A stretch of 24,000 bases of DNA from Aminivibrio sp. (GCF_050953645.1 NZ_JBMNMY010000001.1), one strand, 5' to 3'. Shown: positions 6,569 through 22,866, numbered from the stretch's first letter. The notes: generated from the sequence alone by a model not told the origin. A program made the numbers and translations.

Positions 6569-7729
6569 TTGGCGATCTACATGAACAACGGGGCCACGAC
6601 ATGGCCCAAGCCGGAGTGCGTGGCAAGGGCCATGTCGGACTTCCTCACCGGGTGCGGCGCAAACCTCGCTCGGGGAAGCGCATCGAAGCGCGACATGGGG
6701 ACCCTCGACCTGGTCTTCTCGTGCCGTGAGCTTCTGGCGTCCTTCTTCGGGGGATGGGAAGGCGACGCAAGGTATGTGACCTTCACCGCCAGCGTCACCG
6801 AATCCCTCAACGTGGTGTTCAAGGGATACCTCAAACCCGGAATGAAGGTCCTCATCTCGTCCATGGAGCACAACGCGGTCGTCAGGCCTCTCAGGCGCCT
6901 CGAGACCACGGGCGTATCCGTGGAGGTCCTTCCCTGCGACGAAGAAGGCTTCCTCCATCCATCAACAGTGGAGAAAGCACTGAACGGATCCGGGGTTTCC
7001 ATGGTGGCCCTCTCCCACTGCAGCAACGTGTGCGGCACGATACAGGACCTGGATTCCATAGCCGCCCTCTGCAGGGAGGCAGGAGTTCCCCTGGTCGCCG
7101 ACTGCGCACAGACTGCGGGCATTCTTCCGCTCCAAGCGGAAAAGCTCGGCCTCTCAGCCCTCTGTTTCACGGGCCACAAGGGCCTCCTCGGTCCTCAGGG
7201 AATCGGGGGCATTCTCTGGAACCCGGATTTCGCTGAAAAAACGGACTGGTTTGTTGAGGGAGGCACCGGAAGCTTCTCCCATCTCGAACTGCAGCCCGAC
7301 ACTCTGCCGGACAAGTTCGAGGCAGGCACCCCCAACCTTCCCGGGATAGCGGGGCTCTTTGCGGCCCTTGAATGGATAGGGGAAACGGGGATGGAGAATA
7401 TCAGGAGACGGGAAGAGGCACTCGGCGCCCTGCTTCTGGAAGGGCTGCTCTCCCTCCCCGGCGTTCAGCTCTCGGGGCGGAAGACTATGGACGGCCGACT
7501 GCCCGTGTTCGCGGTCAACTTCCGCGGCAGGGACAACGGAATTCTCGCGGCCAGGCTGTCAGATGAATGGGGTATCGAGACCCGTCCGGGCCTTCACTGC
7601 GCCCCGCTGGCCCACAAGACACTCGGAACATTCCCGGGAGGCGCGCTGCGCCTCAGCCCGGGGTGGTTCACCACCGTTGAAGAAGTGCAGAAGACGGTGG
7701 GAGCCCTGAAGGAAATACTCTCAACATGA
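6569..7729 (+). CDS. Class-V aminotransferase, NifS-like cysteine desulfurase / selenocysteine-lyase family
   Basis: TTG start 8 nt after GGAGGG. The N-terminus reads ..IYMNNGATTWPKPECV.. (IY-x-DNAATT-x-PKP pattern). Also present are SHCSNVCGTIQDL and the PLP-lysine region FTGHKGLLGPQGIGG. It lies immediately upstream of selD. Confidence 0.85.
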   Translation: MAIYMNNGATTWPKPECVARAMSDFLTGCGANLARGSASKRDMGTLDLVFSCRELLASFFGGWEGDARYVTFTASVTESLNVVFKGYLKPGMKVLISSMEHNAVVRPLRRLETTGVSVEVLPCDEEGFLHPSTVEKALNGSGVSMVALSHCSNVCGTIQDLDSIAALCREAGVPLVADCAQTAGILPLQAEKLGLSALCFTGHKGLLGPQGIGGILWNPDFAEKTDWFVEGGTGSFSHLELQPDTLPDKFEAGTPNLPGIAGLFAALEWIGETGMENIRRREEALGALLLEGLLSLPGVQLSGRKTMDGRLPVFAVNFRGRDNGILAARLSDEWGIETRPGLHCAPLAHKTLGTFPGGALRLSPGWFTTVEEVQKTVGALKEILST

Positions 7730-7749: not shown

Positions 7750-8796
7750 ATGAGACTCACTGAACTTTCCACTACAAGCGGCTGAGCTGCAAAAATAGGT
7801 CCGGCGGACCTGGAGAAGATCCTCAGGGATCTCCCGCTTGCACGTGATGAACGGATCATAAGCTCATGGGGCTCCGGCGAGGACGCCGCCATCTGGACCC
7901 TCGACGCCGAAAGGGCGGGGGTCCTCACGGTGGATTTCATTACTCCCGTATCCGATGACCCGTATACGTGGGGGCAGATCGCCGCGGCGAACTCCCTGAG
8001 CGACGTGTTCGCCATGGGAGGGAAACCCTTCGTGGCCCTGAACATTGTCGGCTTTCCCACGAAGGCCCTGGGTCTGGACGTGCTGAAGGAAGTCCTCAGG
8101 GGAGGGCAGGAAAAGGTCGCCGAGGCGGGAGGATTTCTTCTCGGCGGGCACAGCGTGGACGACAGGGAACCCAAGTACGGCCTCGTTGTCTACGGAGAAG
8201 TGCGGAGGGACTCCATCTGGAAGGTCACGGGCGCAAGGCCGGGCGACCTCCTTATCCTCACCAAGCCTGTAGGCACGGGGATCGTGGCTACGGCAGTGAA
8301 GGCGGACATGGTGGAGGATGAAGCCTCACGGACCGAGGCCGCCAGGTGGATGACGACGCTGAACGACCTGCCCCGGCGCATCTCCGAAGCGGAGTGCCGT
8401 TCCGTGAACGCCTGCACCGACGTCACCGGTTTCGGCCTCGCCGGCCATGCCCTGGACATGCTCTCGGGGGGAGGCCTGAATCTCACCCTGGGGATACGGA
8501 ATGTCCCCCTTCTTCCCGGCGTCCTGGATCTCGCATGCAGCGGCCTCATCCCGGCAGGGACCTACAACAACAGGGTCGCCTACGAGGACAGGGTGAAGGA
8601 CCCGGGAAAACACGACGAGATCCTTATGGACATGATCTTCGACGCCCAGACATCCGGAGGCCTCCTGCTCGCAATGGGCAGGGACGATGCGGAAAAGATG
8701 CTTCCGGTGATCCGCGGTTTCGGCTTTGAGCAGGCGGCAGTGATCGGACAGTTCTCCGAGGGGGACGGAACCATAGAAATAGCGGACAGCATCTAG
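7750..8796 (+). CDS. selD: Selenide, water dikinase (selenophosphate synthetase) with selenocysteine encoded by in-frame TGA at 7783-7785
   Basis: ATG at 7750 follows a GGAGGAGG RBS. The product MRLTELSTTSG-U-AAKIGPADLEKIL... is continuous in frame with the ORF-track fragment 7930..8796 (DFITPVSDDPYTWGQIAAANSLSDVFAMGGKP...). Total length is 348 aa, typical for SelD. Confidence 0.9.
7797..7811 (+). promoter_or_regulatory. SECIS-like hairpin downstream of the selD UGA
   Basis: AGGTCC-GGC-GGACCT forms a 6-bp GC-rich stem with a G-containing apical loop. It starts 11 nt after the TGA (7783-7785). Confidence 0.55.
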
Positions 8797-8908: not shown

Positions 8909-10000
8909 ATGAAAAGCATCAACGGAATTCTCATTTCCCGCTGGGGGCCGGCCATAACCGGTGCCTTCGTGGGAGCGGCGGCGTCACTGCTTGTGTACTT
9001 CGGAAATCCCGGAAACATGGGGATATGCGTGGCGTGCTTCACCCGCGACATCGCGGGAGCGCTGGGCCTTCACCGGGCCGGTGTTGTCCAGTATCTCAGG
9101 CCCGAGATACCCGGCTTCATCCTGGGGGCGTTTCTCGCTGCATTCCTCAGCCGGGAATACCAGCCCAGGTCCGGTTCCTCGCCAGTTGTACGGTTCTTCC
9201 TCGGTTTCTTCGCCATGATCGGCGCCCTGATCTTCCTCGGGTGCCCGTGGAGGGCCTACGCCCGTCTCGCAGGCGGCGACTGGAACGCTATTGCGGGAAT
9301 AGCCGGCCTCACGGCGGGGATAGGCCTGGGCATAGTCTTCCTGTGGAACGGGTTCAGCCTGGGCAGGGCGTCCAGGTCTCCCGCCTGGGCAGGGGCCGTT
9401 ATGCCCCTTGCCGCTGTCGCCCTCCTCGCCCTTCTTTACCTGAGGCCTCTTTTCGGTCCTGAGGGGACCGGCCCTGTCTTCTTTTCCAAGTCCGGACCGG
9501 GCGCTGCCGCGGCGCCTGTTCTCATATCCCTTGGCGTCGGGCTTGCCGTGGGGTGGATGGCCCAGAAAAGCCGCTTCTGCACCGTGGGCGCACTTCGGGA
9601 TCTCATCATGCTCAGGAACGGCCATCTCTTCAGCGGCGTGGCGGCCTTCCTCGTCTCGGCCTTCGTCGTTAACCTCCTTCTCGGCCAGTTCAGGCCCGGA
9701 TTTGAAAGCCAGCCCGTGGCCCACACGAACCAGCTGTGGAACTTCATCGGAATGGCCCTTTCCGGCCTCGCCTTCACTCTTGCGGGAGGCTGCCCGGGAC
9801 GCCAGATGATCATGTCCGGGGAAGGGGACGGTGACGCCTCCGTATTCGTTCTCGGCATGCTGGTGGGCGCAGCTTTCGCACACAATTTCTCACTGGCAAG
9901 TTCCGGTGCGGGGGTCACGTCCTTCGGTATGACGGCGACGGTGACCGGTCTCGTTTTCTGCCTTGCCGTGGGCCTGCTGTTCAGAATCAAACTGGATTAG
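8909..10000 (+). CDS. yedE: YedE-family selenium-metabolism membrane protein (YeeE/YedE sulfur/selenium transport-like)
   Basis: 363-aa polytopic membrane protein. It carries the conserved Cys-containing motifs GNMGICVACFTRD and KSRFCTVGALRD, plus GGCPGRQ. It pairs with yedF and sits next to selD. Confidence 0.85.
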   Translation: MKSINGILISRWGPAITGAFVGAAASLLVYFGNPGNMGICVACFTRDIAGALGLHRAGVVQYLRPEIPGFILGAFLAAFLSREYQPRSGSSPVVRFFLGFFAMIGALIFLGCPWRAYARLAGGDWNAIAGIAGLTAGIGLGIVFLWNGFSLGRASRSPAWAGAVMPLAAVALLALLYLRPLFGPEGTGPVFFSKSGPGAAAAPVLISLGVGLAVGWMAQKSRFCTVGALRDLIMLRNGHLFSGVAAFLVSAFVVNLLLGQFRPGFESQPVAHTNQLWNFIGMALSGLAFTLAGGCPGRQMIMSGEGDGDASVFVLGMLVGAAFAHNFSLASSGAGVTSFGMTATVTGLVFCLAVGLLFRIKLD

Positions 10001-10012
10001 GGGGAATGAGAA

Positions 10013-10231
10013 ATGTCTGAAGCTTTTGTAGTCGATGCACGGGGCCTTTCCTGCCCCCAGCCCGTTATGGAAACGCGGAAAGCCCTTGAGAAGCACACAG
10101 GAGGGCCTGTGGAAGTCCTCGTGGACACGGTCACGTCCCGGGAAAATGTCGCCCGCTACGGCGAAAGCCACGGGTGGAAGGCCGTGAAAGAGGAAACCGA
10201 TGACGGTTTCAAAGTAACCTTTACCCGCTGA
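10013..10231 (+). CDS. yedF: TusA/SirA-like sulfurtransferase-fold protein YedF
   Basis: 72 aa. VDARGLSCPQPVMETRKAL is the CPxP active-site motif of the TusA/SirA family. It starts 12 nt after the yedE stop. Confidence 0.85.
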   Translation: MSEAFVVDARGLSCPQPVMETRKALEKHTGGPVEVLVDTVTSRENVARYGESHGWKAVKEETDDGFKVTFTR

Positions 10232-10386: not shown

Positions 10387-11058
10387 ATGGACAATTACTA
10401 CGCCGGGAAGCTCAACGCGGGCAACCTGCTTGAAGTGTACAACACGGGTATCGGCAGGGTACGGCAGTACCTGGAAGCGGAGATCGACTTCATCTGCAGC
10501 CGTCTTCACGCTCATGAGACGGTCCTCGAGCTCGGAACGGGGTACGGCCGTATTCTGAAGCGGATCGCCCCCTTCGCGAAAGCCGTGGTGGGGATCGACA
10601 TCTCAAATGATTCCATCGCCTTCGGAAGGGATTACCTCAAGGGATGCTACAACTGCACCGTTCTTGTTCTGGACGCCCACGGGATGGCGTTCGACGGGGA
10701 ATACGACGTGGTGCTCTGTCTCCAGAACGGCCTCTCGGCCATGAAAGGGGACCCGTACGACCTGGTGGAGCGAAGCATGAAGGCTCTCGTTCCCGGAGGA
10801 AGGGCGTTCTTCAGCACCTATGCCTCCGGCTTCTGGGAGTGGCGCCTCGAATGGTTCAAAGAGCAGGCCGGCAAGGGGCTTCTGGGTGAACTGGACATGA
10901 AGAAGACCGGCAAAGGCAGGATCGTCTGCAGTGACGGCTTCACCGCGACGACCTTTTCGGAGGAAGACCTCGAGGCCATGGGAAAAAAGACCGGCTGCCC
11001 CTACAGCCTGCAGATGGTTGACGACTCCAGTCTCTTTCTGATCATCGAGAAGAACTGA
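10387..11058 (+). CDS. Class-I SAM-dependent methyltransferase
   Basis: 223 aa. Motif I is VLELGTGYGRIL, followed by an acidic post-I residue (VVGIDIS) and the LQNGL motif. RBS AGGAGG. Confidence 0.8.
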   Translation: MDNYYAGKLNAGNLLEVYNTGIGRVRQYLEAEIDFICSRLHAHETVLELGTGYGRILKRIAPFAKAVVGIDISNDSIAFGRDYLKGCYNCTVLVLDAHGMAFDGEYDVVLCLQNGLSAMKGDPYDLVERSMKALVPGGRAFFSTYASGFWEWRLEWFKEQAGKGLLGELDMKKTGKGRIVCSDGFTATTFSEEDLEAMGKKTGCPYSLQMVDDSSLFLIIEKN

Positions 11059-11097: not shown

Positions 11098-11125
11098 TTG
11101 CTAAAATTTAACAGGGGTGTATAAT
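11098..11125 (+). promoter_or_regulatory. Sigma70-type promoter of the S-box leader
   Basis: TTGCTA (11098-11103), a 16-nt spacer, then TATAAT (11120-11125), about 38 nt upstream of the riboswitch P1 stem. Confidence 0.55.
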
Positions 11126-11162: not shown

Positions 11163-11270
11163 CTTTTATCCAGAGCGGCTGAGGGACTGGCCCTATGAAG
11201 CCCGGCAACCTGCCTGAAAAGGCGTGGTGCCAACACCAGCGCTCCGATTTATCGGGGCGGATGATAAGAG
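11163..11270 (+). promoter_or_regulatory. SAM-I (S-box) riboswitch aptamer
   Basis: CUUUUAUCCAGAGCGGCUGAGGGACUGGCCCUAUGAAGCCCGGCAACCUGCC...GGUGCCAACACCAGCG...GAUGAUAAGAG. All the hallmark conserved blocks of the S-box consensus are present (UUAUCnAGAG, GGnGGAGGGAnnGGCCC, UGAAnCCnGGCAACC, GGUGCCAA, GAUnAnAAG), along with P1 pairing UUAUC/GAUAA. Confidence 0.9.
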
Positions 11271-11319
11271 GAGAACCAGAAGCACGGATCTGTCTCGATC
11301 CATGCGCCATGGCGGCCAC

Positions 11320-11348
11320 AGGCCTCTCCTCGGAGAGGCCTTTTTTTT
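11320..11348 (+). terminator. Riboswitch expression-platform terminator (with competing antiterminator)
   Basis: AGGCCTCTC-CTCG-GAGAGGCCT is a 9-bp stem followed by T8. GAGGAGA (11268-11274), on the 3' side of P1, is complementary to TCTCCTC (11325-11331) in the 5' arm of the terminator, which is the classical S-box antiterminator arrangement. Confidence 0.8.
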
Positions 11349-11386
11349 GTCTTTTAAACCGGTTCGCTTGAACCGGAACACATTCC

Positions 11387-12047
11387 CCGAAGGAGGAAAT
11401 GCCCATGATCACGATCGATTATTCCAGGCGCCCCGAAGACTATTCCGAGCCCTTCGACCCCGAGGAACTGATGCTCAGCCGCATCAGCGGCGCCGCCAGG
11501 AGGGAGGTCGTCCGGAAAATGATACGGGAGGGCCGGATGAATGAAGTTCCCGAGGGATTTGACAACCCCGTCCTCAGCCACGACGAGAGGAGGGCCTGGG
11601 CCCGGTACAACCCGTCGTTCCTCGGAGGGGAATACCTGCCGCCGTGCCGGGAAGACGAAGTGGAGATCGCCAGGGTAACCATCCGGTCCACAACCTTCGA
11701 CGTCGTCTCCGTCCGGGCGAAATCCGGAAAAGACCGCATCAGCTACAGGATAAACGACGAGTACAACGGCGATAACCTCGGCGAAAAGCACACGCGCACC
11801 TCGGTCCGCCCCCTCACCCTCGGGAGTTTGCTGGATTTCCTCATCGGCGCGTGGAGCCTTTACGAAAGCGTGGAATGGAACTACCCCGGTGACCTGGAAG
11901 GGCAGCTCGGGTTCTTCTGGGGAGAGTCACAGTTCTACCCGGAGTTCGACGAGGCCCTGAGGGAAAAGGTGACGGAGGGGTTTTACGCAAATCAGAAAAG
12001 GGAGGAATAAATCCATGTACACGGGCAGGGACACAATTGAGTGGCTG
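11387..12047 (+). repeat. Tandem-duplication copy 1 (RBS + A1 + intergenic + first 33 nt of B)
   Basis: Aligns base for base with 13542-14211. By eye, identity is roughly four in five positions and highest at both ends, for example GGAGGAATAAAyCCATGTACACGGGCAGGGACAC. Confidence 0.8.
11405..12010 (+). CDS. Hypothetical protein A1 (unknown family; paralog of A2)
   Basis: AGGAGG (11391-11396) lies 8 nt before ATG 11405. The track's earlier ATG at 11399 is TTG in the paralogous copy, so the second ATG is the conserved start. About 201 aa, charged, with no TM segment or signal peptide. Confidence 0.75.
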   Translation: MITIDYSRRPEDYSEPFDPEELMLSRISGAARREVVRKMIREGRMNEVPEGFDNPVLSHDERRAWARYNPSFLGGEYLPPCREDEVEIARVTIRSTTFDVVSVRAKSGKDRISYRINDEYNGDNLGEKHTRTSVRPLTLGSLLDFLIGAWSLYESVEWNYPGDLEGQLGFFWGESQFYPEFDEALREKVTEGFYANQKREE

Positions 12048-13055
12048 TACGGGAAACAGCTCCAGGTCGACGACGAATGGTCGGTCATCACGGAGAACGG
12101 ATTCACATGGTGGGCCGGTGATCACGCACAGACGGTGGAGGTCGTCGGCGAGGCCGACGGGCCTTCGGGCGAGAGGGGGTATTACATCTCCATCCGGACG
12201 GAGCTGCTGAAGGTCAGGAGCCTGGACCCCGACGCCCTGAAAGCCGTCAGCCTGACGCTCATGCCCTTCGCATCCATGGCGGGGCCGGTTTTCGACCCCC
12301 GCAGGGGAACCCTGGACCTCTGCTCATGGGCCCTCGTCTACGAGGGGATCAGCCCGTGGATGAACGTCCTCCTCAGCGTCGCCGCAGCCATCCAGATCTA
12401 CGAAGCCCGCAGGCTGGGGGACAATTTTTCCGCCTTCGGCATGGAAAACGCCGTCAGTGCCCATCCGAAGAACGGGGTCCGCAGGGAACACGACGAAATC
12501 GCCGGGCTGGTCCCGTCGCTTATCCAGCCCACAGGGAAAGAGCCGTCCCGGTGGCCCGACGACGAATTCCAGAAAGCGGCGGACCTGCTCGGGCAAAATC
12601 CCCCCGTCCTCATGGCAAGTGCCGGAGGGCCCGGGCTGTCAGCCGAGTTCCCCTTCGGCACCTTTTCCTCCCTCTGCAGGATGGCTGCCGATCAGCCACA
12701 CCCGTTCTACGGAAACGGCCTGCTGGTCACCCATTTCTTCCCCGTTTCCGGAAAGAAGGGAGAGGAGGAAAAATGGATCCGGAAGGCCCTCTCCCTGAAT
12801 GAGCCTCAACTGGGCTCCGACCCCGCCGGATACGGCTTCGGAAGCTATGCCTACAGGGACGGCATGATCGTCTACGCGGCGTTTTTCCCGAACATTCTCC
12901 ACAGCCCCGGCTTCCTGCTGAACCTCTTCCTCTCCTGCGGGGCGCGGGGAATGGCCATGAACAGGGTACTTGCGGGAGTCACGGGGGAAGTTGACCCCTT
13001 CAGCATCTCCCGGAGCGCTGCCGAACGGTTTCTGGGTGAGACGGGGGAAAACTGA
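12015..13055 (+). CDS. Hypothetical protein B (346 aa, unknown family)
   Basis: GGGAGG RBS; the start is 4 nt after the A1 stop. The ORF is long and uninterrupted with host-like codon usage. I could assign no motif. Confidence 0.75.
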   Translation: MYTGRDTIEWLYGKQLQVDDEWSVITENGFTWWAGDHAQTVEVVGEADGPSGERGYYISIRTELLKVRSLDPDALKAVSLTLMPFASMAGPVFDPRRGTLDLCSWALVYEGISPWMNVLLSVAAAIQIYEARRLGDNFSAFGMENAVSAHPKNGVRREHDEIAGLVPSLIQPTGKEPSRWPDDEFQKAADLLGQNPPVLMASAGGPGLSAEFPFGTFSSLCRMAADQPHPFYGNGLLVTHFFPVSGKKGEEEKWIRKALSLNEPQLGSDPAGYGFGSYAYRDGMIVYAAFFPNILHSPGFLLNLFLSCGARGMAMNRVLAGVTGEVDPFSISRSAAERFLGETGEN

Positions 13056-13108
13056 GGCACAGGGCGCGTCGGAATATGTGAAGAGATTACGGCACAGGAG
13101 GGAACCGA

Positions 13109-13492
13109 ATGAGGGATATGATCCGCAGGCTGATCGAGGACGCAGGGCTTACGTTCGGCGAGGACGTAAGCGACGGGAACGGCGGCATAGCACGGTACGG
13201 CGGTCGGCGTGAGGCGGGCGGCTGGGTTGTGGCCGGAAACAGCGCCAGACAGGTCAGGCAGGGCATCGCCGAACTGAGGAAGCGGGACGAGAAGCGGTTC
13301 GTCAGGAAGGCGCTGGTCGACAACGGCCTCCGCCTCTCCTTCCACGAAAGAAGCATCCCGAAAAACGGGGTCCTGGTCAACAGCATCCTCTACAAGGGGT
13401 GGAACGACGACGGGGAGAATGTCGTCTCGGGATCATGCCTCGGCGAGGTGCTGGAATCCATCGAGAAATGGCAGGAAGAGGCCCGGGTATGA
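13109..13492 (+). CDS. Hypothetical protein C (127 aa, unknown family)
   Basis: AGGAGGG RBS 6 nt upstream of the ATG; same strand as the operon. Confidence 0.65.
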   Translation: MRDMIRRLIEDAGLTFGEDVSDGNGGIARYGGRREAGGWVVAGNSARQVRQGIAELRKRDEKRFVRKALVDNGLRLSFHERSIPKNGVLVNSILYKGWNDDGENVVSGSCLGEVLESIEKWQEEARV

Positions 13493-13541
13493 CAGGTGTT
13501 TTCCAGCGGCCTGGGAGATTCAGGGATACCCGTAAACAACA

Positions 13542-14211
13542 CCGAAGGAGGAATTGCCCATGAGCACCATCGATTATTCCAGGCGCCCCGAAGGCTATTT
13601 TGAGCCCTCCGACCCGGGGGAACTGATGCTCAGCCGCATCACCGGCGCCATCAGGCGGGAGGCCGTCAGGAAAATGGTACGGGAAGGCGGAATGGACGCC
13701 GTTCCCGAGGGATTCGGCAACGAGGAGCTCAGCGAAGGGCACAGGAGGGCCTGGGGCCTGATCCACCCCATGTGCATGGGAGGGGAGTTCCTCCTTCCCT
13801 GCGAACCCGGAGAGCTGGAAATCGCCCGGCTGACCATAAGGTCCACCACCTACGACGTACTCTCCGTCCGGGCGAAACGGGTGAAAAACCGCATCCGCAT
13901 CAGGGTCGACGACGAATACGACGGCGAGACCCTCAATAAAAAACACTCGTGCATCTCTGTCCGGCCCCTTACCCTCGGGCGTCTGATCGACCTCGTGATC
14001 GTCGGGTGGGACGTGTTCGAATGCCTGGAACGCAACTACCCCGGAGACCTGGAAGGGCAGCTCGGATTCTTCTGGGCAGAGTCCCGGTTCTACCCCGACT
14101 TCGACCAGGCCCTGCGGGAGAGGGTGACGGAGCATTTCCGCGCACACCACGAAGAGGAAAAAGTGGAGGAATAAACCCATGTACACGGGCAGGGACACGA
14201 TCGAATGGTTT
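13542..14211 (+). repeat. Tandem-duplication copy 2 (RBS + A2 + intergenic + B' 5' end)
   Basis: See copy 1. Similarity stops abruptly after codon 10-11 of B/B'. Confidence 0.8.
13560..14174 (+). CDS. Hypothetical protein A2 (paralog of A1)
   Basis: Same RBS context as A1 (CCGAAGGAGGAAnTGCCCATG). The protein aligns end to end with A1. Shared blocks include TIDYSRRPE, ELMLSRI, VPEGF, IAR-TIRSTT-DV-SVRAK, SVRPLTLG and NYPGDLEGQLGFFW. Confidence 0.75.
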   Translation: MSTIDYSRRPEGYFEPSDPGELMLSRITGAIRREAVRKMVREGGMDAVPEGFGNEELSEGHRRAWGLIHPMCMGGEFLLPCEPGELEIARLTIRSTTYDVLSVRAKRVKNRIRIRVDDEYDGETLNKKHSCISVRPLTLGRLIDLVIVGWDVFECLERNYPGDLEGQLGFFWAESRFYPDFDQALRERVTEHFRAHHEEEKVEE

Positions 14212-14268
14212 CTCGAACAGCCGGAATTGACGCAGGCATATTCAAGAAGGAGGAGATGCCGGGGATGA
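14179..14268 (+). pseudogene. B' : 29-codon remnant/leader retaining the first 10 codons of gene B
   Basis: MYTGRDTIEW is identical to the B N-terminus, with 3 synonymous differences, and the sequence then diverges. Its TGA (14266-14268) overlaps the ATG (14265-14267) of the next ORF as ATGA. Confidence 0.5.
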
Positions 14269-14666
14269 CATTGAAGCTCGGAAAAAAAGGCCTGAGCAGG
14301 GTGTGGATGGAGGAAATCGAAGGGGAGTACGTTGTGAGCGGGTTCGTCAACAAGGACAGCAGGAACTGGGAAAAAACAGAGGTCTCCCGGCGCTTCGAAA
14401 CCCTGGAGGAAGCAAACGGCTTCATTGAATGGGCCTGGCCCAAAATGGTGTTTCTGACCATGGACGAGTACTTTGACCCCGAACAGCCCGTGCTGTACGA
14501 GATTTTTACAGCTGATGGGGAAAGCGGGGAAGAAAAACCGGTAAGCCTGTCCCACTCGGCATGGAGATCAACGCTCATCGCCAGGCAGGCGCTTAGGAAT
14601 GCCGGAGAGGGGAAACGGGCTGTCATCAGGGGATCGGACGGATCGGTACGAATAATTGACGGATAA
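14265..14666 (+). CDS. Hypothetical protein D (~133 aa, unknown family)
   Basis: AAGGAGGAG lies ~9 nt upstream of ATG 14265. The track's start at 14205 lacks an RBS and overlaps B'. ATG 14256 is a possible alternative start. Confidence 0.6.
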   Translation: MTLKLGKKGLSRVWMEEIEGEYVVSGFVNKDSRNWEKTEVSRRFETLEEANGFIEWAWPKMVFLTMDEYFDPEQPVLYEIFTADGESGEEKPVSLSHSAWRSTLIARQALRNAGEGKRAVIRGSDGSVRIIDG

Positions 14667-14681
14667 GGGGCGTACGCCCCT
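14666..14681. repeat. Perfect 16-nt palindrome AGGGGCGTACGCCCCT between D and E
   Basis: Read directly from the sequence. It overlaps the last base of the D stop codon and has no T-run after it. Confidence 0.6.
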
Positions 14682-14698
14682 CACAAGGAGGAGTCACA

Positions 14699-15133
14699 AT
14701 GGAACATAAGTACAGGATCATTGACGGAAACGGGAAATTCTACAGAGGAGAGGAAAACGGCGGGGGATGGACGGAAGTGATGGATGAAGCAAAAGTATAC
14801 GACAGCCAAAAAGAACTGCCGGCCGCACTGCTGAACGACGAGGGGGAAGTGTGCATGAAGAAGAAGATCCGCTTTGTGGGCATAAGCGGTTATACATCTA
14901 TCCGCTACTTCCCGGAGCGCTCCGGGAATGGAGGAAGCGACGGAGGGGAAAAAGACATAACCGCAGCCCCATACTGTGTTATCAAGGGAAAGGTGTCCGG
15001 GATCAGGGAAGCAGAACCGGACGACCCGATCTACACCCGCGGGTTCATAATCGGGGGAACTTTTTCGAGAATGGCTTCGAAAAGAAATACGGAGCCAATT
15101 TCCGAAGAGGAGAAGAGGCACAGGGCAGAATAA
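14699..15133 (+). CDS. Hypothetical protein E (144 aa, unknown family)
   Basis: AAGGAGGAG RBS 5-6 nt upstream of the ATG; this is the last ORF before the AT-rich spacer. Confidence 0.65.
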   Translation: MEHKYRIIDGNGKFYRGEENGGGWTEVMDEAKVYDSQKELPAALLNDEGEVCMKKKIRFVGISGYTSIRYFPERSGNGGSDGGEKDITAAPYCVIKGKVSGIREAEPDDPIYTRGFIIGGTFSRMASKRNTEPISEEEKRHRAE

Positions 15134-15402
15134 AAGTATAGCGGTCCTGCGAACAGGGCGAATGCCTAAAGAGGTTCCAATCGATTGATTCCAGAGGTCT
15201 GGAGAAATTCATCTAAATTTGTTTTAATAGTCAGCCTCTAGTTGAACTTTAAACACCATTTGGGTAGGTAGTCGCGAAATAATGAAAACTGTATGTATTC
15301 AAGATATTTGCCTCGAAAAAGAATCCTAAAAACGAAAATTTCGGCAATAAGTGGTAGTATAGAAAAAACATTCCTTTTATTTCATTCATGGGGAGAGAGA
15401 TC

Positions 15403-17259
15403 ATGCTCAGGGAAGCCATAGAAAAAATACTGAAGGAATGGTTAGTAGCTAAAAGAGAACCCATAAAGGGGAACTCACTTGCTGCTTTTATTCGGGATGA
15501 GTTCCCGGAGGTAGTCAGGCAAGTGCTAGGTGAAAGAAGTTCTGACTATAAAATCAGAAGCAGTCCTGGTGCGGGGAACTGGGCCGATGTCCCTTGGCTT
15601 GCGATTCTTAATCCCAAAATTGCGGCAAATACTCAAGAGGGTATAAATCCGGTTTTTCTTTTTTCTGCTGACGGTTCTGGAGTTTATCTTTCGCTGAATC
15701 AAGGTACAAGCAAGCCCAAGCAAATTCTTGGTTCACGAAAAGCCAAAGAACAAATTGAACTTATTAAGGCACAGTCTATCGTGAAAATACCTCGGTTGAA
15801 AGGCTGGGGGTTGGATTCAATTGATCTGAAAGCTAATTCACCTCTAGCAAAATCTTACGAAGAGGCCAATATTCAAGCTAGGTTCTACCCTGCAGATGAG
15901 CTTCCATCCGAAGAAATTCTCGTTGATGATCTGCTTTCCCTTGTTGATATCTACAGTCAATCGGAAGAATTTCTCACAGGATTATTGAATGATAATGGGG
16001 GAAAAGGGACTGACATCATTTCTCCTCCTGTTTTATCGCCAAGTTTCAAAAATGGAGGATTGGCAATAATATCTCTACATAAGCCCTTTCTCCTACTTGC
16101 TGGTATTTCAGGCGTGGGCAAAACCCGCTTCGTAAGAGAACAAGCGAAGGTGCATAATGTCAACCTGCTCAACTATTGCCTTGTTTCTGTTCGCCCTGAC
16201 TGGCACGAACCCTCCGATCTTTTAGGGTATATTTCGAGGATCGGGCAACAGGGTCCACGGTACATGGCGACTGATTTTCTTCGCTTCCTTGTCTCTGCGT
16301 GGAAAGATGCTGTGGACACTGTTTCCGAAGGACAAATTGTATGGAAAGAGATAGAAAAGATGGTTCCCTTCTGGTTGTGTCTTGACGAGATGAACCTTGC
16401 CCCTGTTGAACAGTATTTCGCGGATTACCTCTCCGTTCTTGAAACGAGGGAGTGGTCCGAGGGGGGCTATTTTTGTGACCCCCTTCTGAAGGCCTCCGTC
16501 TTGCATCAACTTGATGAAACCGGGTTGAATGAATTTTGGCGAGACGTAGGTCTTCAAGGAGATGGGCCGAAAGAAGATGGTTTACGAAGTTTCTTTTTGA
16601 GTGAAATTGAGGGTATTCCGCTTCCGCCTAACCTCATCGTCGCCGGAACGGTTAATATGGATGAAACTACCCACAGTTTCTCCCGAAAGGTGATTGATCG
16701 GGCCCTGACCCTGGATTTTGGGGAGTTTTTCCCCAACGATTTCGGAGCTTTTTTCGAGCCTACGACAACGTTGCGCACCTTGGGAATTCCAAAAATCACC
16801 CATGTACGGAAGAAAGACCTAGCGGTTGTGCCCGCCGACCCTGAGGGTGAAAAAACGGTGGCCTTTTTATCATCGGTAAACCAAGTCCTGGAAGGGACAC
16901 CTTTCCAGCTTGCCTTCAGGTCATTAAACGAAGCCCTTTCGCTCGTCCTCTGTTTTCTTCCCAAAGGCGACGGCGAATTGCAAGCCGTCTGGGACGATTT
17001 TCTGATGACAAAAGTGCTGCCGAGGATTGAGGGCGACGAGGACACTCTCGCTTTTGACGGCGATAAAAGCCTTCTCACAGAGCTTTCCGAAATTCTTCGG
17101 GAAGAGCTTCCCTTGATCTGGACTGACGGGAGAAAGGACCTTCTCAGGATGGAAAAGAACGGAGATGTCCTTTTCCCGGTTGAATGCCGATCCAAGCGAA
17201 AAATTACCTGGATGCAGGGTCGTCTGAAAAAAAGTGGATTTACTAGTTTCTGGCCTTAG
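15403..17259 (+). CDS. McrB-like AAA+ NTPase with N-terminal DUF3578 (MrcB_N-type) DNA-reader domain
   Basis: The N-domain motif is SSPGAGNWADVPWLAILNP...INPVFLFSADGSGVYLSLNQG. Walker A is LLLAGISGVGKT (about 16099-16122) and Walker B is WLCLDEMN. The McrB-type GTVNMDETT..SRKVIDRA segment is also present. GGGGAGAG RBS precedes ATG 15403; the track's ATG at 15388 is the alternative start. Confidence 0.85.
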   Translation: MLREAIEKILKEWLVAKREPIKGNSLAAFIRDEFPEVVRQVLGERSSDYKIRSSPGAGNWADVPWLAILNPKIAANTQEGINPVFLFSADGSGVYLSLNQGTSKPKQILGSRKAKEQIELIKAQSIVKIPRLKGWGLDSIDLKANSPLAKSYEEANIQARFYPADELPSEEILVDDLLSLVDIYSQSEEFLTGLLNDNGGKGTDIISPPVLSPSFKNGGLAIISLHKPFLLLAGISGVGKTRFVREQAKVHNVNLLNYCLVSVRPDWHEPSDLLGYISRIGQQGPRYMATDFLRFLVSAWKDAVDTVSEGQIVWKEIEKMVPFWLCLDEMNLAPVEQYFADYLSVLETREWSEGGYFCDPLLKASVLHQLDETGLNEFWRDVGLQGDGPKEDGLRSFFLSEIEGIPLPPNLIVAGTVNMDETTHSFSRKVIDRALTLDFGEFFPNDFGAFFEPTTTLRTLGIPKITHVRKKDLAVVPADPEGEKTVAFLSSVNQVLEGTPFQLAFRSLNEALSLVLCFLPKGDGELQAVWDDFLMTKVLPRIEGDEDTLAFDGDKSLLTELSEILREELPLIWTDGRKDLLRMEKNGDVLFPVECRSKRKITWMQGRLKKSGFTSFWP

Positions 17260-17292
17260 TGTTCGAACCAGGAGCGACAGGGAGGCATAGAA

Positions 17293-19650
17293 ATGCCGGA
17301 AATCCTTACACTCCAGGGAGATTATTGGAGCCTTGGTGTCTGGACACGGGATATTGAATCTCCGAGAAGGACCCTTCGACGTACTCTTGAAAAAAGAGGG
17401 AAAACCCTTCCGGAAACGGTTGTTCGTTTTTCCCCTGAAAGTGTGGTCTTGCGATGCGAATTCCAGGAAGGAAACAAGCCCGGTTCAATACATCTCCCGG
17501 ATCCCTTGTTTTTCGAGAACCGTTTGTATGAGTTTGATTTTCGGTTTGCCGATTCTGTGGATTCTTCCCCTGAACCGCGGGTGCTCCATAGGCTTGTGTC
17601 CATTTGTGACGCCTTTCATTTGTCCGGCAGAAGTTTTCGGGGAAGTGTCAATTTCGGGAATAACATCGGCTGGTTTCGACTCGGCCTAAGGTTCTTTGTC
17701 GCGAAACGCCCGATGGAGCATTTTCTCGCGTTCGAGGTCTTCCCGACGAAAATGGACATGAAAGAAGACCTCGATCGAATAACTCAAATGGTGGATAAAA
17801 CCTACCCCCTGTGGCGTTTTTCATTTGTTCAAAAAACGGAACAGGAGCTTGCCGCTTCGAAAAAACCTCATGAGCGTTTTCCCCTTCTTTGGCTCGCGTT
17901 ATTCCGCTCACTTCGGGAAGAGTTGGTCACTGCCGTAACGGTTCTTTCACGTTCCCCTCATTCCAGGCTTGTTTCGAGAGACCGGCTTCTTCAGCTCGAA
18001 AAAATAAAAGGATCCGTCTCTCCCCGCCTTGAAGAGCGCATCGCGGAGGAGATTACGGGAGGCGGAAAACAACGCCGGTACAGGATCGAAACCCGAAAAA
18101 ACACGGTAGATACGCCTGAAAACAGGTTTGTCAAAATGGTGCTCACGAAAAGCGTTCGAAACCTGCAAAACTTTGTCAAAGGACTGAGTTCCGATGGTGC
18201 ACTATCTGCGGGAGATCGACTGAGTCCCTATTTTTTAGAGGAAATGAAACAGTGGTCTTCAGGGCTTGAACGATGCCTTTCAGATCCGCTCTTCCGTTCC
18301 ATCGGCGATTACCAGGGAATTCGCCAAGAGTCCCTTGTTCTCCAGAAAAAACCGGGGTATTCAAAAGTGTATCGGATTTGGCAGGAGCTCAAGCTGTACC
18401 TCGACTTTTTCGGGCGGTCTGCCTCCATTTCAATGAAATCGGTAGCGGAACTCTATGAGATATGGTGTCTTCTCGAGATACGAAATATCCTGTCTGACCT
18501 TGGGTTTCAGGAGGACAGTTTTTTTCAGCCGTCTCTCCGGAAGTCTTTTTTTGAGAAAGAACTGCCTGAGGGTGGGGGAGCCGCTTTTAGCTTTGTTCGA
18601 CCTGATGGCCTGGCGATACGCCTTTCCCATGAGCCGGTGTTCAGCAGACCAAAAAATGGGGCTTTCAATTCTATTTTTTCATGGACTACGGTTCAAAAAC
18701 CGGATATTTTCTTGGAAGCTCAATTCCCTGACGGGAAGAAAATCCGGTGGATATTTGACGCGAAATATCGTATTTCAAGTGAAGAAGAGGGTTTTGACCT
18801 CATTCCCGACGATGCCATAAATCAGATGCATCGATACCGGGACGCTTTGGTCTATCTTTCAAAGTCCGGCGACGGAGAAGGCGATAAAAGTCGACCGGTT
18901 CTCGGAGCTTTTGTGCTATACCCCGGATGGATAGATGAGGAAAAGGTTACGAACCCCTATAAAAAAAGCATTGAGGAAGTCGGTATCGGAGGATTTCCTC
19001 TTTTGCCGGGAAGAGAAAACCTTTGGCTTCGGTCTTTCTTGGGCGAGATGTTCGGTCAGGTTGTTCAATCCGAAACTCTACGGAGAGTTCCTGAGTCAGA
19101 CGAACACCTGTTAAAAGATTCCGTTAGGATTGCACCCACAGGCCTCTCTTTATCGCGATACCGTGATCTTACGCTGGTGGCGTCGTTGTCTGGAAGGACT
19201 GGGAGAGAGAAAGAGTATTTTGAAAGATTTCTTCAAGGAAAAGCAGGCTGGTACCATATCCCCGTGAGTACAACGGAAAACTACAAGGTAGCAAGGACCG
19301 CAATTCGGGAAATCCGTTATTGCGCTATTGCAGTATCATCAACGGGTGTACCTGACCGGCGCATTGAATTTCTCTACGATGTTCTCTCTATTCGGCTCGT
19401 GAGAAGAAATGAATTCACCCTGGAACAGGCGGGAAAAATCGATCTTTCAAATTCGGCCCTCTATTGGTTGTTTGAACTAGGGTCTTCGAGGACGCTCAAA
19501 CCTCTGGTAGTTCCTGGAAAGCGAGGTTTCCGGTTTATGCTTACCGGAGCGCGGGATCTCATGGAATCTCGGGAATGGAAAGACCTGCCCGACAGGTACG
19601 CTTTTCTCAGGGAAGAACGGCTCCCGGTTTCAGGCGAGGGTTCCGAATGA
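17293..19650 (+). CDS. McrC-like nuclease subunit (DUF2357-type N-region + PD-(D/E)xK core) with an extra unassigned C-terminal domain
   Basis: 785 aa with a GGGAGG RBS. The nuclease motif is ..VQKPD(471)IFLEAQF...IRWIFD(489)AK(491)YRI...INQMHRYRDAL..GAFVLYPG, i.e. the PD...DxK arrangement seen in McrC/PDDEXK_7 proteins. It starts 33 nt after the AAA+ gene. Confidence 0.8.
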   Translation: MPEILTLQGDYWSLGVWTRDIESPRRTLRRTLEKRGKTLPETVVRFSPESVVLRCEFQEGNKPGSIHLPDPLFFENRLYEFDFRFADSVDSSPEPRVLHRLVSICDAFHLSGRSFRGSVNFGNNIGWFRLGLRFFVAKRPMEHFLAFEVFPTKMDMKEDLDRITQMVDKTYPLWRFSFVQKTEQELAASKKPHERFPLLWLALFRSLREELVTAVTVLSRSPHSRLVSRDRLLQLEKIKGSVSPRLEERIAEEITGGGKQRRYRIETRKNTVDTPENRFVKMVLTKSVRNLQNFVKGLSSDGALSAGDRLSPYFLEEMKQWSSGLERCLSDPLFRSIGDYQGIRQESLVLQKKPGYSKVYRIWQELKLYLDFFGRSASISMKSVAELYEIWCLLEIRNILSDLGFQEDSFFQPSLRKSFFEKELPEGGGAAFSFVRPDGLAIRLSHEPVFSRPKNGAFNSIFSWTTVQKPDIFLEAQFPDGKKIRWIFDAKYRISSEEEGFDLIPDDAINQMHRYRDALVYLSKSGDGEGDKSRPVLGAFVLYPGWIDEEKVTNPYKKSIEEVGIGGFPLLPGRENLWLRSFLGEMFGQVVQSETLRRVPESDEHLLKDSVRIAPTGLSLSRYRDLTLVASLSGRTGREKEYFERFLQGKAGWYHIPVSTTENYKVARTAIREIRYCAIAVSSTGVPDRRIEFLYDVLSIRLVRRNEFTLEQAGKIDLSNSALYWLFELGSSRTLKPLVVPGKRGFRFMLTGARDLMESREWKDLPDRYAFLREERLPVSGEGSE

Positions 19651-19712: not shown

Positions 19713-21221
19713 CTGCTGTCCAAAATAAATCGAAATCTGAAATAGTACCCTGAATTTCCAGGGCTTTGCGGAGCGGTTTTAGACAGATTTGAAAACAGGT
19801 CCCCTGTTTTCCTGAACCTCGATAATTAAATCGGCTGTCCAACTTCCGACAGGGTGAATTTCAACTGTTCCGTCTCCGGCACAATGGGCGGCGTAGCAGT
19901 CCAAAAAAACGTCCGCACTCCTCTTTGTCCCTTTCTATTTTGCAACAAACAGTAAAGCCCGATAGGTAAAGAGGTCCAGCCGGAGCATGGTCGCCATGTT
20001 GGAAAAGGACCATCCCGCTTTCGAGAGATGATGCAGCCACTTGATCACCAGTAGAGAAACAAGGTGAATTGTCCGTTCCCGAAGGGAGCGGACAAGAGAA
20101 GGTACCTGGGTGATCAGGGTTGTCCAAATCTGGATGCAAAGGGCGTTCTCGCTCTCACCTATGAAGGTTTTGACCTTCAGGTTCTGCTTCAGCGTCTTGA
20201 AGAAGAGCTCGATCTCCCACCGGTCCCTGTAGATCTCACCTATGGTGCTCGCCCCGAACCTAAGATGATTGGTGAGAAGAACGATATTCTCTCCTGTTTC
20301 AGGGTTCTCGACAGTGATCCTGCGGAGCAGGCCCGGATATCTCTCCTTCATCCCCGTTCTGGTAAGACGGACGATCTCGTCGGAAAGGACATGCCTGTTT
20401 CGGGGCGGAGTACGGACTTCCTGCACGGAATAGACGCAGTTGTCCTTCATCCGGGTGACGAAAAATACGCCCCGGTCCGTCCAGGACTGATACTGAGCGA
20501 AGTCCACGTATCCCCTGTCCAGGGCAACGATGGAGCCGGGTTTGAGGGCAAGTTCCTTCGACATCCGGCTGTCGTGGGTCTTCGCATCCGTGATGGAAAC
20601 GAAGGAGGGCATGTAGTCGTCATGATCCAACAGTACGTGGACCTTTACACCGCCCTTGGCCCTCCGGAATTCCGCCCAGGGAAAAAGAGACAGGCAGAGG
20701 CTGATGGTCGTGGAGTCAAAGGACAGCAGCTTGTTCTTGAACCGGAACTTTTTCTTCCGGCATCCCAAAGAACCCGTAGAGCGGAAATGATCCGACAGCC
20801 TCCAGAACAGCTCCTCGAAAAGCTCCGCGGGACGATGATTGTTTGCATAAGAGAGGGTGGATCTCCTCGGATACTCCTTTATCCCCAGGTGAACGAGTTT
20901 TCCGTTACAGCAGCTGAGGCCGTTAACGATCTCCCTGAGAGAATCCGCTCCGGCCAGATGACAGAAAAGCATTGAGATGAGCTGCGTCTTCGACCGGAAT
21001 CCTTTGGCGTGACGCTCTGCGCCCCATTTGGCGACCAGGTTGTCAAAGTTCACGGCTGTGAAAATCTCAGAAAGCAATTGACTGAACAGGCTCGCAGGCT
21101 TTAGCATTAGTGTGCCCCCCTTTGGGTTTCTTTGAGGTGTTGTTGTGTTGGCGCATTAATAATATCTCAAGGGCCTCTCAGGGGGCATTTAATTTTCTCA
21201 AAAACCTATTTTGGACAAGAG
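19713..21221 (-). mobile_element. Putative IS4-family element (~1.5 kb); boundaries tentative
   Basis: An inverted repeat, TGTCCAAAATA at 19717-19727 and TATTTTGGACA at 21207-21217, brackets the transposase gene. There is extra partial matching outward (CTnnTGTCC). I could not identify a target-site duplication. Confidence 0.4.
19935..21107 (-). CDS. IS4-family DDE transposase (DUF4372 N-domain + DDE_Tnp_1)
   Basis: 390 aa. The N-terminus ...FSQLLSEI....F..LV.K.GAERHAKGF....QLISMLFCHLAG.DSLREI..GL matches the IS4-type DUF4372 region. DDE-region blocks include VALDRGYVDF and RWEIELFFKTLKQ. Confidence 0.85.
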   Translation of the reverse strand: MLKPASLFSQLLSEIFTAVNFDNLVAKWGAERHAKGFRSKTQLISMLFCHLAGADSLREIVNGLSCCNGKLVHLGIKEYPRRSTLSYANNHRPAELFEELFWRLSDHFRSTGSLGCRKKKFRFKNKLLSFDSTTISLCLSLFPWAEFRRAKGGVKVHVLLDHDDYMPSFVSITDAKTHDSRMSKELALKPGSIVALDRGYVDFAQYQSWTDRGVFFVTRMKDNCVYSVQEVRTPPRNRHVLSDEIVRLTRTGMKERYPGLLRRITVENPETGENIVLLTNHLRFGASTIGEIYRDRWEIELFFKTLKQNLKVKTFIGESENALCIQIWTTLITQVPSLVRSLRERTIHLVSLLVIKWLHHLSKAGWSFSNMATMLRLDLFTYRALLFVAK

Positions 21222-21230
21222 CGGTGTCTG

Positions 21231-22316
21231 TCAACCCACTTGTCGCTTTTCCGGGGTTAAAGTTTCCCGTGCTCTTTCATCCTTCTCAGGATTGAGCCAG
21301 ACCACTTTCTCCTCCTCCAGGTTCCTCACCGGACGGGTATTCCATCGTTCCGGGAATTTCCGCTTCGCTTCCTCAAGCACCTGCTTCCTCGCCGCCAGAA
21401 TAGCCGCAGATTCTCCCCGGTGACGCTGGCCCGGAGTCACGTACTTCAAGGCGCTGTGGCGGTGGATCTCGTTGTACCAGTGAACGAAGCCCAACGTCCA
21501 CTCCCTTGCCCCTTCAAGGCTCTCAAATCCGTAGGTCGGATATTCAGGGCGATATTTCAGTGTCCGGAAGAGGGACTCCGAGTAGGCGTTGTCGTCGCTT
21601 GTCCTCGGCCTGCTGTACGACCCGGATATGCCAAGTTTCTCCATCGTGGCCCTGAAGGTCGATGCCTTCATGGGGCTTCCGTTGTCGGAGTGGAGCACCA
21701 GAGGTTTCTTGTTCCTCCAGAGCGCCTCTTTGAGATATGCCTTCCGGATCAGCGTCTTCGCACACTCTCCGCTTTCCTCTTCATGGACCTCCCAGCCGAC
21801 GATATACCGGCTGAAGATGTCCACGATCATGTAGAGGTAGTAGTATTTGCCCCGGACGGGCGAAGTCAAATAGGTGATGTCCCAGGACCACACCTGGTCG
21901 GGGGCCGTTGCTCCATGCGATGCCGGAACCTTCCTGTTCGGGCCCTTTGCCTTGCCTCTGGTGTGCTGCTGGTTCTTTTCGCGCAGTATCCTGTAGAACG
22001 TCGATTCGGACGCCAGCCATTGCCCTTTGTCCGCAAGGTCCGCCACTATCTGGGCAGGCGGCTTGCTTGCATATTCCGGACTGTCGGCGATTTCGAGCAC
22101 TCTGTGCCTCTCGTCGTCGCTCAGGGTTCCCGTGGGCTTCCTGCGCTCGGCGTCCTTCCTCCCGTCTTCCTTTACTATGTTTTTCCCTCTGCCCCTGAGC
22201 CATCTCTGTCGGGTGCGGATGGTGATTCCAAGTTCACGGCACGCCATGAACAGCCTTGCTCCGTTTCTGTGGGCTTCGTCGACCAGCTCCACTGCTTTCA
22301 GGCGAGGAGCGGCCAC
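21231..22316 (-). CDS. IS3-family transposase OrfB (HTH_21 + rve integrase core, DDE)
   Basis: WSWDITYL..YLYMIVDIFSRYIVGW (D), LVLHSDNGSPM (D) and AYSESLFRTLKYR (E). GTG start as called by the ORF track. Confidence 0.9.
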   Translation of the reverse strand: MAAPRLKAVELVDEAHRNGARLFMACRELGITIRTRQRWLRGRGKNIVKEDGRKDAERRKPTGTLSDDERHRVLEIADSPEYASKPPAQIVADLADKGQWLASESTFYRILREKNQQHTRGKAKGPNRKVPASHGATAPDQVWSWDITYLTSPVRGKYYYLYMIVDIFSRYIVGWEVHEEESGECAKTLIRKAYLKEALWRNKKPLVLHSDNGSPMKASTFRATMEKLGISGSYSRPRTSDDNAYSESLFRTLKYRPEYPTYGFESLEGAREWTLGFVHWYNEIHRHSALKYVTPGQRHRGESAAILAARKQVLEEAKRKFPERWNTRPVRNLEEEKVVWLNPEKDERARETLTPEKRQVG

Positions 22317-22320
22317 CCTA

Positions 22321-22824: not shown

Positions 22825-22866
22825 CGCACCTCCCGAGAGCTATTGTCAAATCTGGTGTATGGGTCA

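Follow-up and report, generated by a model that had tools for sequence, protein, structure and literature searches.

A stretch of 24,000 nucleotides (nt) from Aminivibrio sp. (GCF_050953645.1, NZ_JBMNMY010000001.1), which is called the window here, contains a tightly packed block of seven open reading frames (ORFs), A1, B, C, A2, B', D and E, located behind an S-adenosylmethionine (SAM) riboswitch and in front of genes similar to the McrBC restriction module (Table 1). An initial annotation, made by reading the sequence alone, had regarded this block as an operon of proteins without recognisable family and as a candidate for a new defence or toxin/immunity system. The ORFs were found at the positions and with the lengths given there, all on one strand. 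An AGGAGG-type Shine-Dalgarno sequence, or ribosome binding site (RBS), is present upstream of every ORF, the intergenic gaps are 4-61 nt, and, as described, the stop codon of B' overlaps the start codon of D as ATGA at 14265-14268. Scans of the six proteins A1, B, C, A2, D and E against Pfam, NCBIfam, PADLOC and PHROGs gave nothing above noise, so that the absence of any recognisable family holds as well.

Organization of the block

A1 and A2 are paralogues with 64% identity, and they lie in a direct duplication of about 660 nt whose two copies are about 79% identical. B' is placed at the end of this duplication, and its homology to B is limited to the first ~11 codons (MYTGRDTIEW). Judged from this extent of homology, B' is the stump of a second B gene and not an independent gene. 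The ratios of nonsynonymous to synonymous substitutions (dN/dS) against the orthologues of Aminivibrio pyruvatiphilus are 0.36 for A1, 0.25 for A2, 0.29 for B and 0.31 for C. By these estimates, the four are real genes under purifying selection, which evolve fairly fast. The nearest loci are those of an uncultured Synergistaceae (98% identity) and of A. pyruvatiphilus (82% for A, 76% for B and 67% for C). The exact E protein is found on at least 23 contigs, and the four places examined come from four different samples, all with the order SelD, YedE, TusA, methyltransferase, riboswitch, A1, B, C, A2, D, E and McrBC. Since the dN/dS values of A1, A2, B and C stay between 0.25 and 0.36 and the same cassette occurs on at least 23 contigs, these genes are real rather than chance ORFs.

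The only Rfam RNA in the window is a full-length SAM-I (S-box) riboswitch. A promoter-like site is located about 38 nt upstream of its aptamer, and the RBS of A1 follows about 40 nt downstream of an intrinsic terminator. The segment GAGGAGA (11267-11273), which forms the 3' side of the P1 helix, is complementary to UCUCCUC (11325-11331) in the 5' arm of the terminator, and the two segments pair when the fold is constrained to block the 3' arm of the terminator. This pairing would be the antiterminator of the usual S-box design. In S-box leaders, P1 forms and the terminator folds when SAM is plentiful, and the antiterminator allows readthrough when SAM is low. Applied to the window, high SAM would stabilize P1 and the terminator and end transcription ahead of A1. 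At low SAM, the 3' strand of P1 would instead pair with the 5' arm of the terminator, and RNA polymerase would continue through A1-B-C-A2-(B')-D-E.

No convincing terminator was found on the + strand inside the block, and together with the short gaps this makes one operon the simplest reading of the seven ORFs. The upstream neighbour is a methyltransferase gene in the window and an amidohydrolase gene in A. pyruvatiphilus, and the riboswitch and A are kept in both. Thus, the riboswitch is part of the cassette rather than of the upstream methyltransferase gene. A full aptamer, a terminator platform on the same strand before A1, and conservation of the association in other genomes are the features of an S-box operon. 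It is therefore well supported, as far as leader anatomy and gene order can tell, that the block is a single transcription unit gated by the SAM-I riboswitch and expressed at low SAM. The riboswitch had been taken as a mere boundary of the block; it is present there, but the anatomy of the leader and its link to A across phyla (below) indicate that it is the control element of the operon.

The S-box regulon of Firmicutes-type bacteria comprises metK, metE, metI/C, yitJ and others. The window shares with this regulon (RF00162) the full aptamer, the terminator/antiterminator platform, the position in a 5' leader and the logic of being off at high SAM. It differs in its cargo, which is six proteins without family beside restriction genes, not genes for biosynthesis or transport of methionine or SAM.

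Table 1. Features of the window, numbered from its first nucleotide.
Feature	Coordinates	Strand	Remarks
Sigma-70-like promoter	11098-11125	+	TTGCTA, 16 nt, TATAAT; 10/12 consensus matches; candidate by consensus only
SAM-I (S-box) aptamer	11163-11270	+	Rfam RF00162; 88.7 bits vs gathering threshold 44.4; model positions 1-108 of 108
Intrinsic terminator	11320-11349	+	9-bp GC-rich stem, then eight T
Duplicated unit (RBS, A, start of B), copy 1	11387-12046	+	Repeat families D1-D3, 78-82% identity
A1	11405-12010	+	201 amino acids (aa); ATG at 11405 with proper RBS spacing (longer ORF start 11399)
B	12015-13055	+	346 aa
C	13109-13492	+	127 aa
Duplicated unit (RBS, A, start of B), copy 2	13542-14210	+	Repeat families D1-D3, 78-82% identity
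A2	13554/13560-14174	+	204 aa from ATG at 13560
B'	14179-14268	+	29 aa; vestige of second B
D	14265-14666	+	133 aa from RBS-spaced ATG; longest ORF begins at 14205
E	14699-15133	+	144 aa; final gene of the operon
McrB-like (MrcB_N + AAA) and McrC-like (DUF2357 + PDDEXK_7)	15388-19650		41-49% G+C
Three transposase genes (DDE_Tnp_1, rve, Mutator)	19935-23892		Downstream of McrBC-like genes

SAM riboswitches upstream of family A in distant phyla

A search with the single sequence gave 67 relatives of A, and a profile search gave at least 3,458, none of which carries a Pfam domain or a name; neither A1 nor A2 matches a Pfam or NCBIfam model. In GTDB, scanned with one genome per species (185,579 species genomes), 269 stretches encode an A relative, and the best 80 of these 269 loci were studied. 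They belong mainly to Burkholderiales (Limnohabitans, Polynucleobacter and Accumulibacter-like bacteria). The others are from Alpha- and Gammaproteobacteria, from a few metagenome-assembled genomes (MAGs) labelled as Chloroflexi, Planctomycetota, an actinobacterium and Chitinophaga, and, in three cases, from Synergistales. A. pyruvatiphilus and several Limnohabitans strains, which are named strains and not MAGs, carry an A locus. A is sometimes present in multiple copies within one genome.

A SAM-I riboswitch is located upstream of A in all seven Synergistales loci (the window, L001, L002, L003, L010, L011 and L012). For the 77 A loci from outside Synergistales, the elements upstream of A and on its strand were counted. 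At least one SAM element was found in 64 of them, mostly from Proteobacteria. Rfam reports SAM-I/IV (RF01725) in 11 loci, and a model constructed from these 11 detects it in 31 of the 77; all of the full-length matches are on the A strand and upstream of A. SAM-II (RF00521) exceeded the Rfam gathering threshold in three loci (37-40 bits against 36).

The loci without Rfam match share a conserved element of about 65 nt at the RBS of A, in the layout P1, GAUUU, UUGCnn, P1', a short hairpin, nnGCUAAA and AGGAG. These SAM-II-like elements can be aligned with the three Rfam-validated SAM-II elements, with which they have the invariant core bases in common. A first covariance model, made from the three validated elements, missed the majority type, and it was replaced by a pattern count and by a model of 42 sequences. 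In 990 kb, the pattern occurs 100 times on the + strand and six times on the - strand, and the 42-sequence model gives 96 and four matches, respectively; this model has zero matches in the window, in the Synergistales loci and in control loci with B only. In 46 loci, the element ends at most 130 nt from the start of A. The pseudoknot and the loop hairpin show covariation, with 87.8% of cells paired against 38-61% with slid partners, and with GC to CG and GC to AU exchanges. From the shared core sequence and the covariation of the pseudoknot, we infer that the SAM-II-like elements bind SAM. Both SAM-I/IV and SAM-II-like elements were found in 28 of the 77 loci.

The gene right behind a SAM-II-like element is A in 44 cases, and otherwise a gene for a 110-aa protein (5), DUF3293 (3), a protein of about 105 aa (3), MetK (2) or a MoxR-like AAA protein (1). 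In four loci (L015, L030, L035 and L046), A and MetK, the full-length SAM synthetase, share one riboswitch-led operon. In many others, A is the sole gene behind the riboswitch. Only a few SAM riboswitches are present per several megabases of proteobacterial genomes, which means that the association between A and the riboswitches is not due to chance. Family A is thus, on the evidence of these leaders, a well-supported dedicated member of the SAM regulon, being under SAM-riboswitch control in distant phyla. This narrows the initial description of its function as entirely unknown: its control across phyla points to induction by SAM shortage.

About 100 SAM-II-like pseudoknots of about 65 nt were counted in these loci, several of them per proteobacterial A locus and each over the RBS of a small gene. 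Such arrays are seen in L013, L017, L060/L062, L077, L089 and others (for example, L013:7907-7971 and L017:2287-2351). Most of the elements carry a hairpin in loop 3 and are not reported by Rfam at gathering thresholds; they may represent an unrecognised variant of SAM-II/SAM-V. There are also heterologous tandem leaders, in which one A gene has both a SAM-I/IV aptamer and, within about 230 nt behind it, a SAM-II-like element on its RBS (L055, L057, L058, L061, L063, L066-L068, L079 and L085; for example, L057:7768-7988). A low-GC Synergistales contig (L012:496-1650) has two SAM-I riboswitches within 3 kb; the second is located 1.2 kb upstream of the one that precedes A, before a gene for an unrelated unknown protein of about 200 aa.

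Tandem SAM-II/SAM-V leaders have reportedly been found in marine alphaproteobacteria, in work that is said to be that of Poiata et al. in 2009. The proteobacterial A loci resemble them in having an upstream SAM aptamer and, behind it, an H-type pseudoknot in which the Shine-Dalgarno sequence is occluded, and the core GAUUU, UUGC and GCUAAA of SAM-II (SAM_alpha, RF00521) is common to the elements of the A loci and the three that pass RF00521. In contrast to those leaders, the upstream element of the A loci is SAM-I/IV, most of the elements next to the RBS have the extra hairpin in loop 3 and stay under the Rfam thresholds, and several elements occur in one locus, each before a different small gene.

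Few regulatory RNAs have been studied as well as SAM riboswitches, whose regulons are generally taken to comprise genes for methionine and SAM biosynthesis, salvage and transport. The riboswitch of the window is itself a textbook one. What is new is its cargo, and the broad association of riboswitches of several classes with an unannotated family that has no detectable structural relative. No description of the association between A and the riboswitches was found in a literature search, the coverage of which was incomplete, and in catalogues of regulons such genes may appear as "hypothetical". A search on DUF3293 and on SAM-II with hypothetical proteins in Burkholderiales returned nothing relevant. 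A family of thousands of proteins stands behind three classes of SAM riboswitches, both in Synergistota and among the Alpha-, Beta- and Gammaproteobacteria. Further results of the comparison are the arrays of small genes with SAM-II-like elements that are mostly missed by Rfam, and the heterologous leaders of SAM-I/IV and SAM-II-like elements.

Predicted features of the A and B proteins

In the alignment of family A, invariant positions are R, G, GGE, R, D, DEY, P, F, S and Y, and invariant R, H, E and D residues are present, with the motifs HPxxMGGEYLP and DEY. The AlphaFold2 model of A1 is confident, with a predicted local distance difference test score (pLDDT) of 91.3 and a predicted template modelling score of 0.87. 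Foldseek gave no match for this model in PDB (best E=0.74) or BFVD (best E=0.32), and a profile of family A found nothing among the PDB sequences. A looks like a soluble, acidic protein, whose set of invariant polar residues resembles a ligand or metal site. Among the relatives, one protein of 165 aa from a 1-kb ENA/MGnify contig (P0063) has an A-like N-terminal segment, with 67% identity over 30% of A1, and is annotated as PF00763 (FolD); it may be a fusion or an artefact of gene calling.

B has at least 233 unannotated relatives with 45-50% identity, in Mycobacterium, Coprothermobacterota, and marine and other bacteria, Proteobacteria included. Its model has a pLDDT of 89.4, and its two halves have the same order of secondary structures (alpha-beta3-4-alpha-beta2-alpha). 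Structure comparison, which the initial annotation had suggested for these proteins, was without match for A and gave a weak one to chaperones of the type III secretion system (T3SS) and YbjN-like proteins for B. The best match of B in Foldseek is 2plg (YbjN-like), with a probability of 0.99, E=0.0099 and about half of the model aligned. Further matches are weak (E=0.03-0.3), namely VecA, CesT, ExsC, SigE, SycE, SpcU and SycH. The template modelling scores for the YbjN-like and chaperone folds are 0.5-0.57 relative to the target. These weak but consistent matches suggest that B is a tandem chaperone-like binding protein rather than an enzyme. Compared with the T3SS chaperones and YbjN-like proteins (2plg, CesT, SycE and ExsC), the aligned half of the B model shows a weak likeness, and by the order of their secondary structures the two halves of B resemble a covalently linked dimer; EspG, which we take to be a tandem version of the T3SS-chaperone-like fold, provides a comparison. 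In contrast to these proteins, the sequence of B shows no similarity to them and no match to Pfam YbjN or chaperone models, a profile of family B found nothing among the PDB sequences, no secretion system is nearby, and the family is widespread as a stand-alone gene. A general membership of B in the SAM regulon was considered and rejected: no riboswitch was found upstream of B in Mycobacterium, marine and other loci, but only in Aminivibrio.

Rearrangements of the cassette

The order of genes behind the riboswitch differs among relatives. It is A1, B, C, A2, B', D and E in the window; A, a decayed start of B, A', B and C in A. pyruvatiphilus; and B and C' in a second Aminivibrio (L095). The orthologue of A2 in A. 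pyruvatiphilus is A', its second A gene, with 86% identity. A decayed B start, GGGGGAATGAATCCATGAACACGGG, lies in the 249 nt that separate A and A' of A. pyruvatiphilus (L001:1042-1289) and mirrors B' of the window. From the orthology of A2 and A', two A-B units predate the split of the species, and the copies of B were lost reciprocally. In L095 (5760-6981), the same SAM-I riboswitch, the terminator and an A-type RBS are fused straight to the start of B, GGAGGAAGTGCCCATGTACACGG. This looks like a precise deletion of A at a short CCATG junction. Similarly, the region at the start of D, GAAGGAGGAGATGCCGGGGATGAC (repeat D5), is 79% identical to the region at the start of A1, a likeness that suggests recombination at short conserved junctions.

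C has only 11 representatives among 1.84 billion proteins. It is kept after B in L001, L003, L010 and L011, and a short form, C', is present in L095. By gene order, the pairing of B with C behind the SAM-I riboswitch is conserved in Aminivibrio. B and its small partner C may have been recruited into the riboswitch operon only in the Aminivibrio-like lineage of Synergistaceae. Neither D nor E was found outside this species and its closest relatives, and both could have been gained recently in this lineage, where they would have taken the place of the second B. Comparison of C, D and E with each other revealed no significant similarity. Matches of C to giant repeat proteins were discarded, because these are cadherin/Ig-repeat proteins and the likeness is probably compositional (G/D-rich).

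Thus, the repetition of A with different partners, which had been pointed out as a sign of cassette swapping, reflects a real modular rearrangement. The pairing of A with B is, however, not a conserved system (see below).

Possible roles of the cassette

The explanation we rank first, at an even chance or slightly less, is that A acts in the response to SAM shortage and has a role in the homeostasis of SAM and methionine. A would bind or convert a SAM- or methionine-related metabolite, or modulate the synthesis or consumption of SAM. The logic of the regulon, the operons shared with MetK, the loci in which A is the sole regulated gene, and the invariant polar residues resembling a ligand or metal site all point in this direction. 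Several observations weigh against this explanation. Eleven of the 77 A loci have no riboswitch at all (two more are cut off upstream), and most of the SAM-II-like elements score under the Rfam gathering thresholds. The antiterminator of the window is not the minimum-free-energy fold of the isolated expression platform, and the predicted fold of A gives no functional hint. A loci also resemble variable accessory islands rather than metabolic operons: their neighbours include tRNA genes, an integrase, HicB/XRE/MqsA-like antitoxins, SNase, HD_4 hydrolase, a macro-like protein, WYL and MoxR-VWA genes. Finally, A has the patchy distribution seen in GTDB, sometimes with several copies, which fits conflict genes at least as well. 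Family A is a strong candidate, and one open to direct testing, either for a function that is missing from SAM homeostasis or for a new kind of response when SAM is depleted.

The last of these observations lead to the second explanation, which we consider unlikely but a serious contender: a cassette for defence or stress that is fired by depletion of SAM. For example, phage SAM lyases disarm SAM-dependent restriction and BREX (bacteriophage exclusion). The riboswitch would then be a sensor of attack, the effectors (A, B-C, D and E) would be tightly off in healthy cells, and the MetK copies would restore SAM. Indeed, the setting of the block is island-like, as initially noted. McrB- and McrC-like genes and three transposase genes follow it in the window, and a DUF3427/PLD helicase gene and insertion sequences (IS) adjoin the cassette in A. 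pyruvatiphilus and L095. The neighbours just listed, from SNase, HD_4 and the macro-like protein to antitoxin-like, WYL, MoxR-VWA and integrase genes, are typical of conflict islands. Patchy distribution, multiple paralogues, and swapped partner genes with reshuffling at conserved RBS/start junctions are also in line with this explanation, as is a fairly fast evolution (dN/dS 0.25-0.47). The double control by SAM-I/IV and SAM-II-like elements in 28 loci suggests a very tight off state.

However, a defence or toxin-immunity locus, as first proposed, was not borne out by the scans. For the proteins of the block, the best match in PADLOC-DB v2 is HamA with E=0.011-0.049 over 24 residues, which is noise, and the only match nearby is the adjoining McrB-like protein (PDC-M26A). 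No toxin, nuclease or NTPase domain, nor any other recognisable effector domain, was detected in the block. A plasmid or phage origin of A was dropped as a candidate, since no match was found by tblastn in collections of plasmids and phages or by scanning IMG/VR. Furthermore, A is often a single gene without partner, and plain methionine starvation would fire the cassette too. A literature search found no link between SAM riboswitches and SAM lyases or phage. McrBC itself does not use SAM. In comparison with defence-island cassettes, the block is similar in its position beside McrB-/McrC-like genes and IS and in the modular turnover of its genes. It is different in that it has no match to profile hidden Markov models of defence genes and in that its G+C content (0.60-0.63 across the block at 11.5-14 kb) is unlike that over the McrBC genes (0.41-0.49), a difference that had been correctly recognised at the outset. 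Moreover, what is conserved next to A across bacteria is a SAM riboswitch and not a defence gene.

A broader proposal, which we regard as doubtful, is that SAM riboswitches of three classes gate mobile accessory cassettes (A, B-C, DUF3293, extra MetK and small proteins), many of which have a riboswitch of their own. Together, the cassettes would answer a collapse of the SAM pool, caused for example by phage SAM lyases or by competitors, and A would be the signature effector. If true, such a response would not have been recognised before, and no earlier case would exist in which a metabolite riboswitch serves as the sensor of a defence or counter-defence module.

The original proposal, in which A and B form a toxin/immunity or defence system with swappable partners independently of the riboswitch, now appears very unlikely. 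In its favour are the ancestral duplication and remodelling of A-B in the Aminivibrio lineage, the absence of known families among the proteins, and the island setting. A and B are, however, linked in one narrow clade only: they co-occur in just four A-bearing Synergistaceae loci of three or four close taxa (L001/L003, L010 and L011), and B, C, D and E are all absent from the vicinity of A in the 78 loci examined from outside Synergistales. Six homologues of B outside the A-bearing Synergistaceae were examined. Five of them stand alone in unrelated contexts, without A or riboswitch, and the sixth, in L095, is the A-less locus in which B and C' follow the same riboswitch. In addition, the model of B resembles a chaperone or binding protein and not an enzyme or toxin. 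With no A-B pairing across genomes and no toxin domain in Pfam, NCBIfam and PHROGs, the block does not have the hallmarks of a toxin-antitoxin or polymorphic toxin system.

Least credible of all is that the ORFs are functionless, decaying hitch-hikers on a mobile island with a riboswitch left over from a lost methionine or SAM gene; the B' remnant and other rearrangements, the restriction of D and E to one species and its closest relatives, and the dN/dS of D (0.68, with few underlying substitutions) would agree with it, but A, B and C are under purifying selection, the link between A and riboswitches recurs with three riboswitch classes in distant phyla, the models of A and B are confident, and the cassette is identical across many samples.

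Other features around the block

On the sister contigs, the genes past McrC vary, being either NUDIX and RelB genes or IS elements, so that this flank is variable. Upstream of the block, SelD (AIRS/AIRS_C; 7750-8796) has an in-frame TGA in its N-terminal motif (..TSG*AAKIGP) and is probably, from this motif, a selenocysteine-containing selenophosphate synthetase. It is clustered with genes for a class V aminotransferase (6569-7729), a YedE-like protein (8909-10000), a TusA-like protein (10013-10231) and the methyltransferase (10387-11058). Farther upstream of this selenium cluster, a gene on the - strand (4818-6320) encodes a 500-aa protein with beta/gamma-crystallin and Inhibitor_I36 repeats, beside a TPR protein gene on the + strand (3667-4734). 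This is unusual in a Synergistaceae genome.

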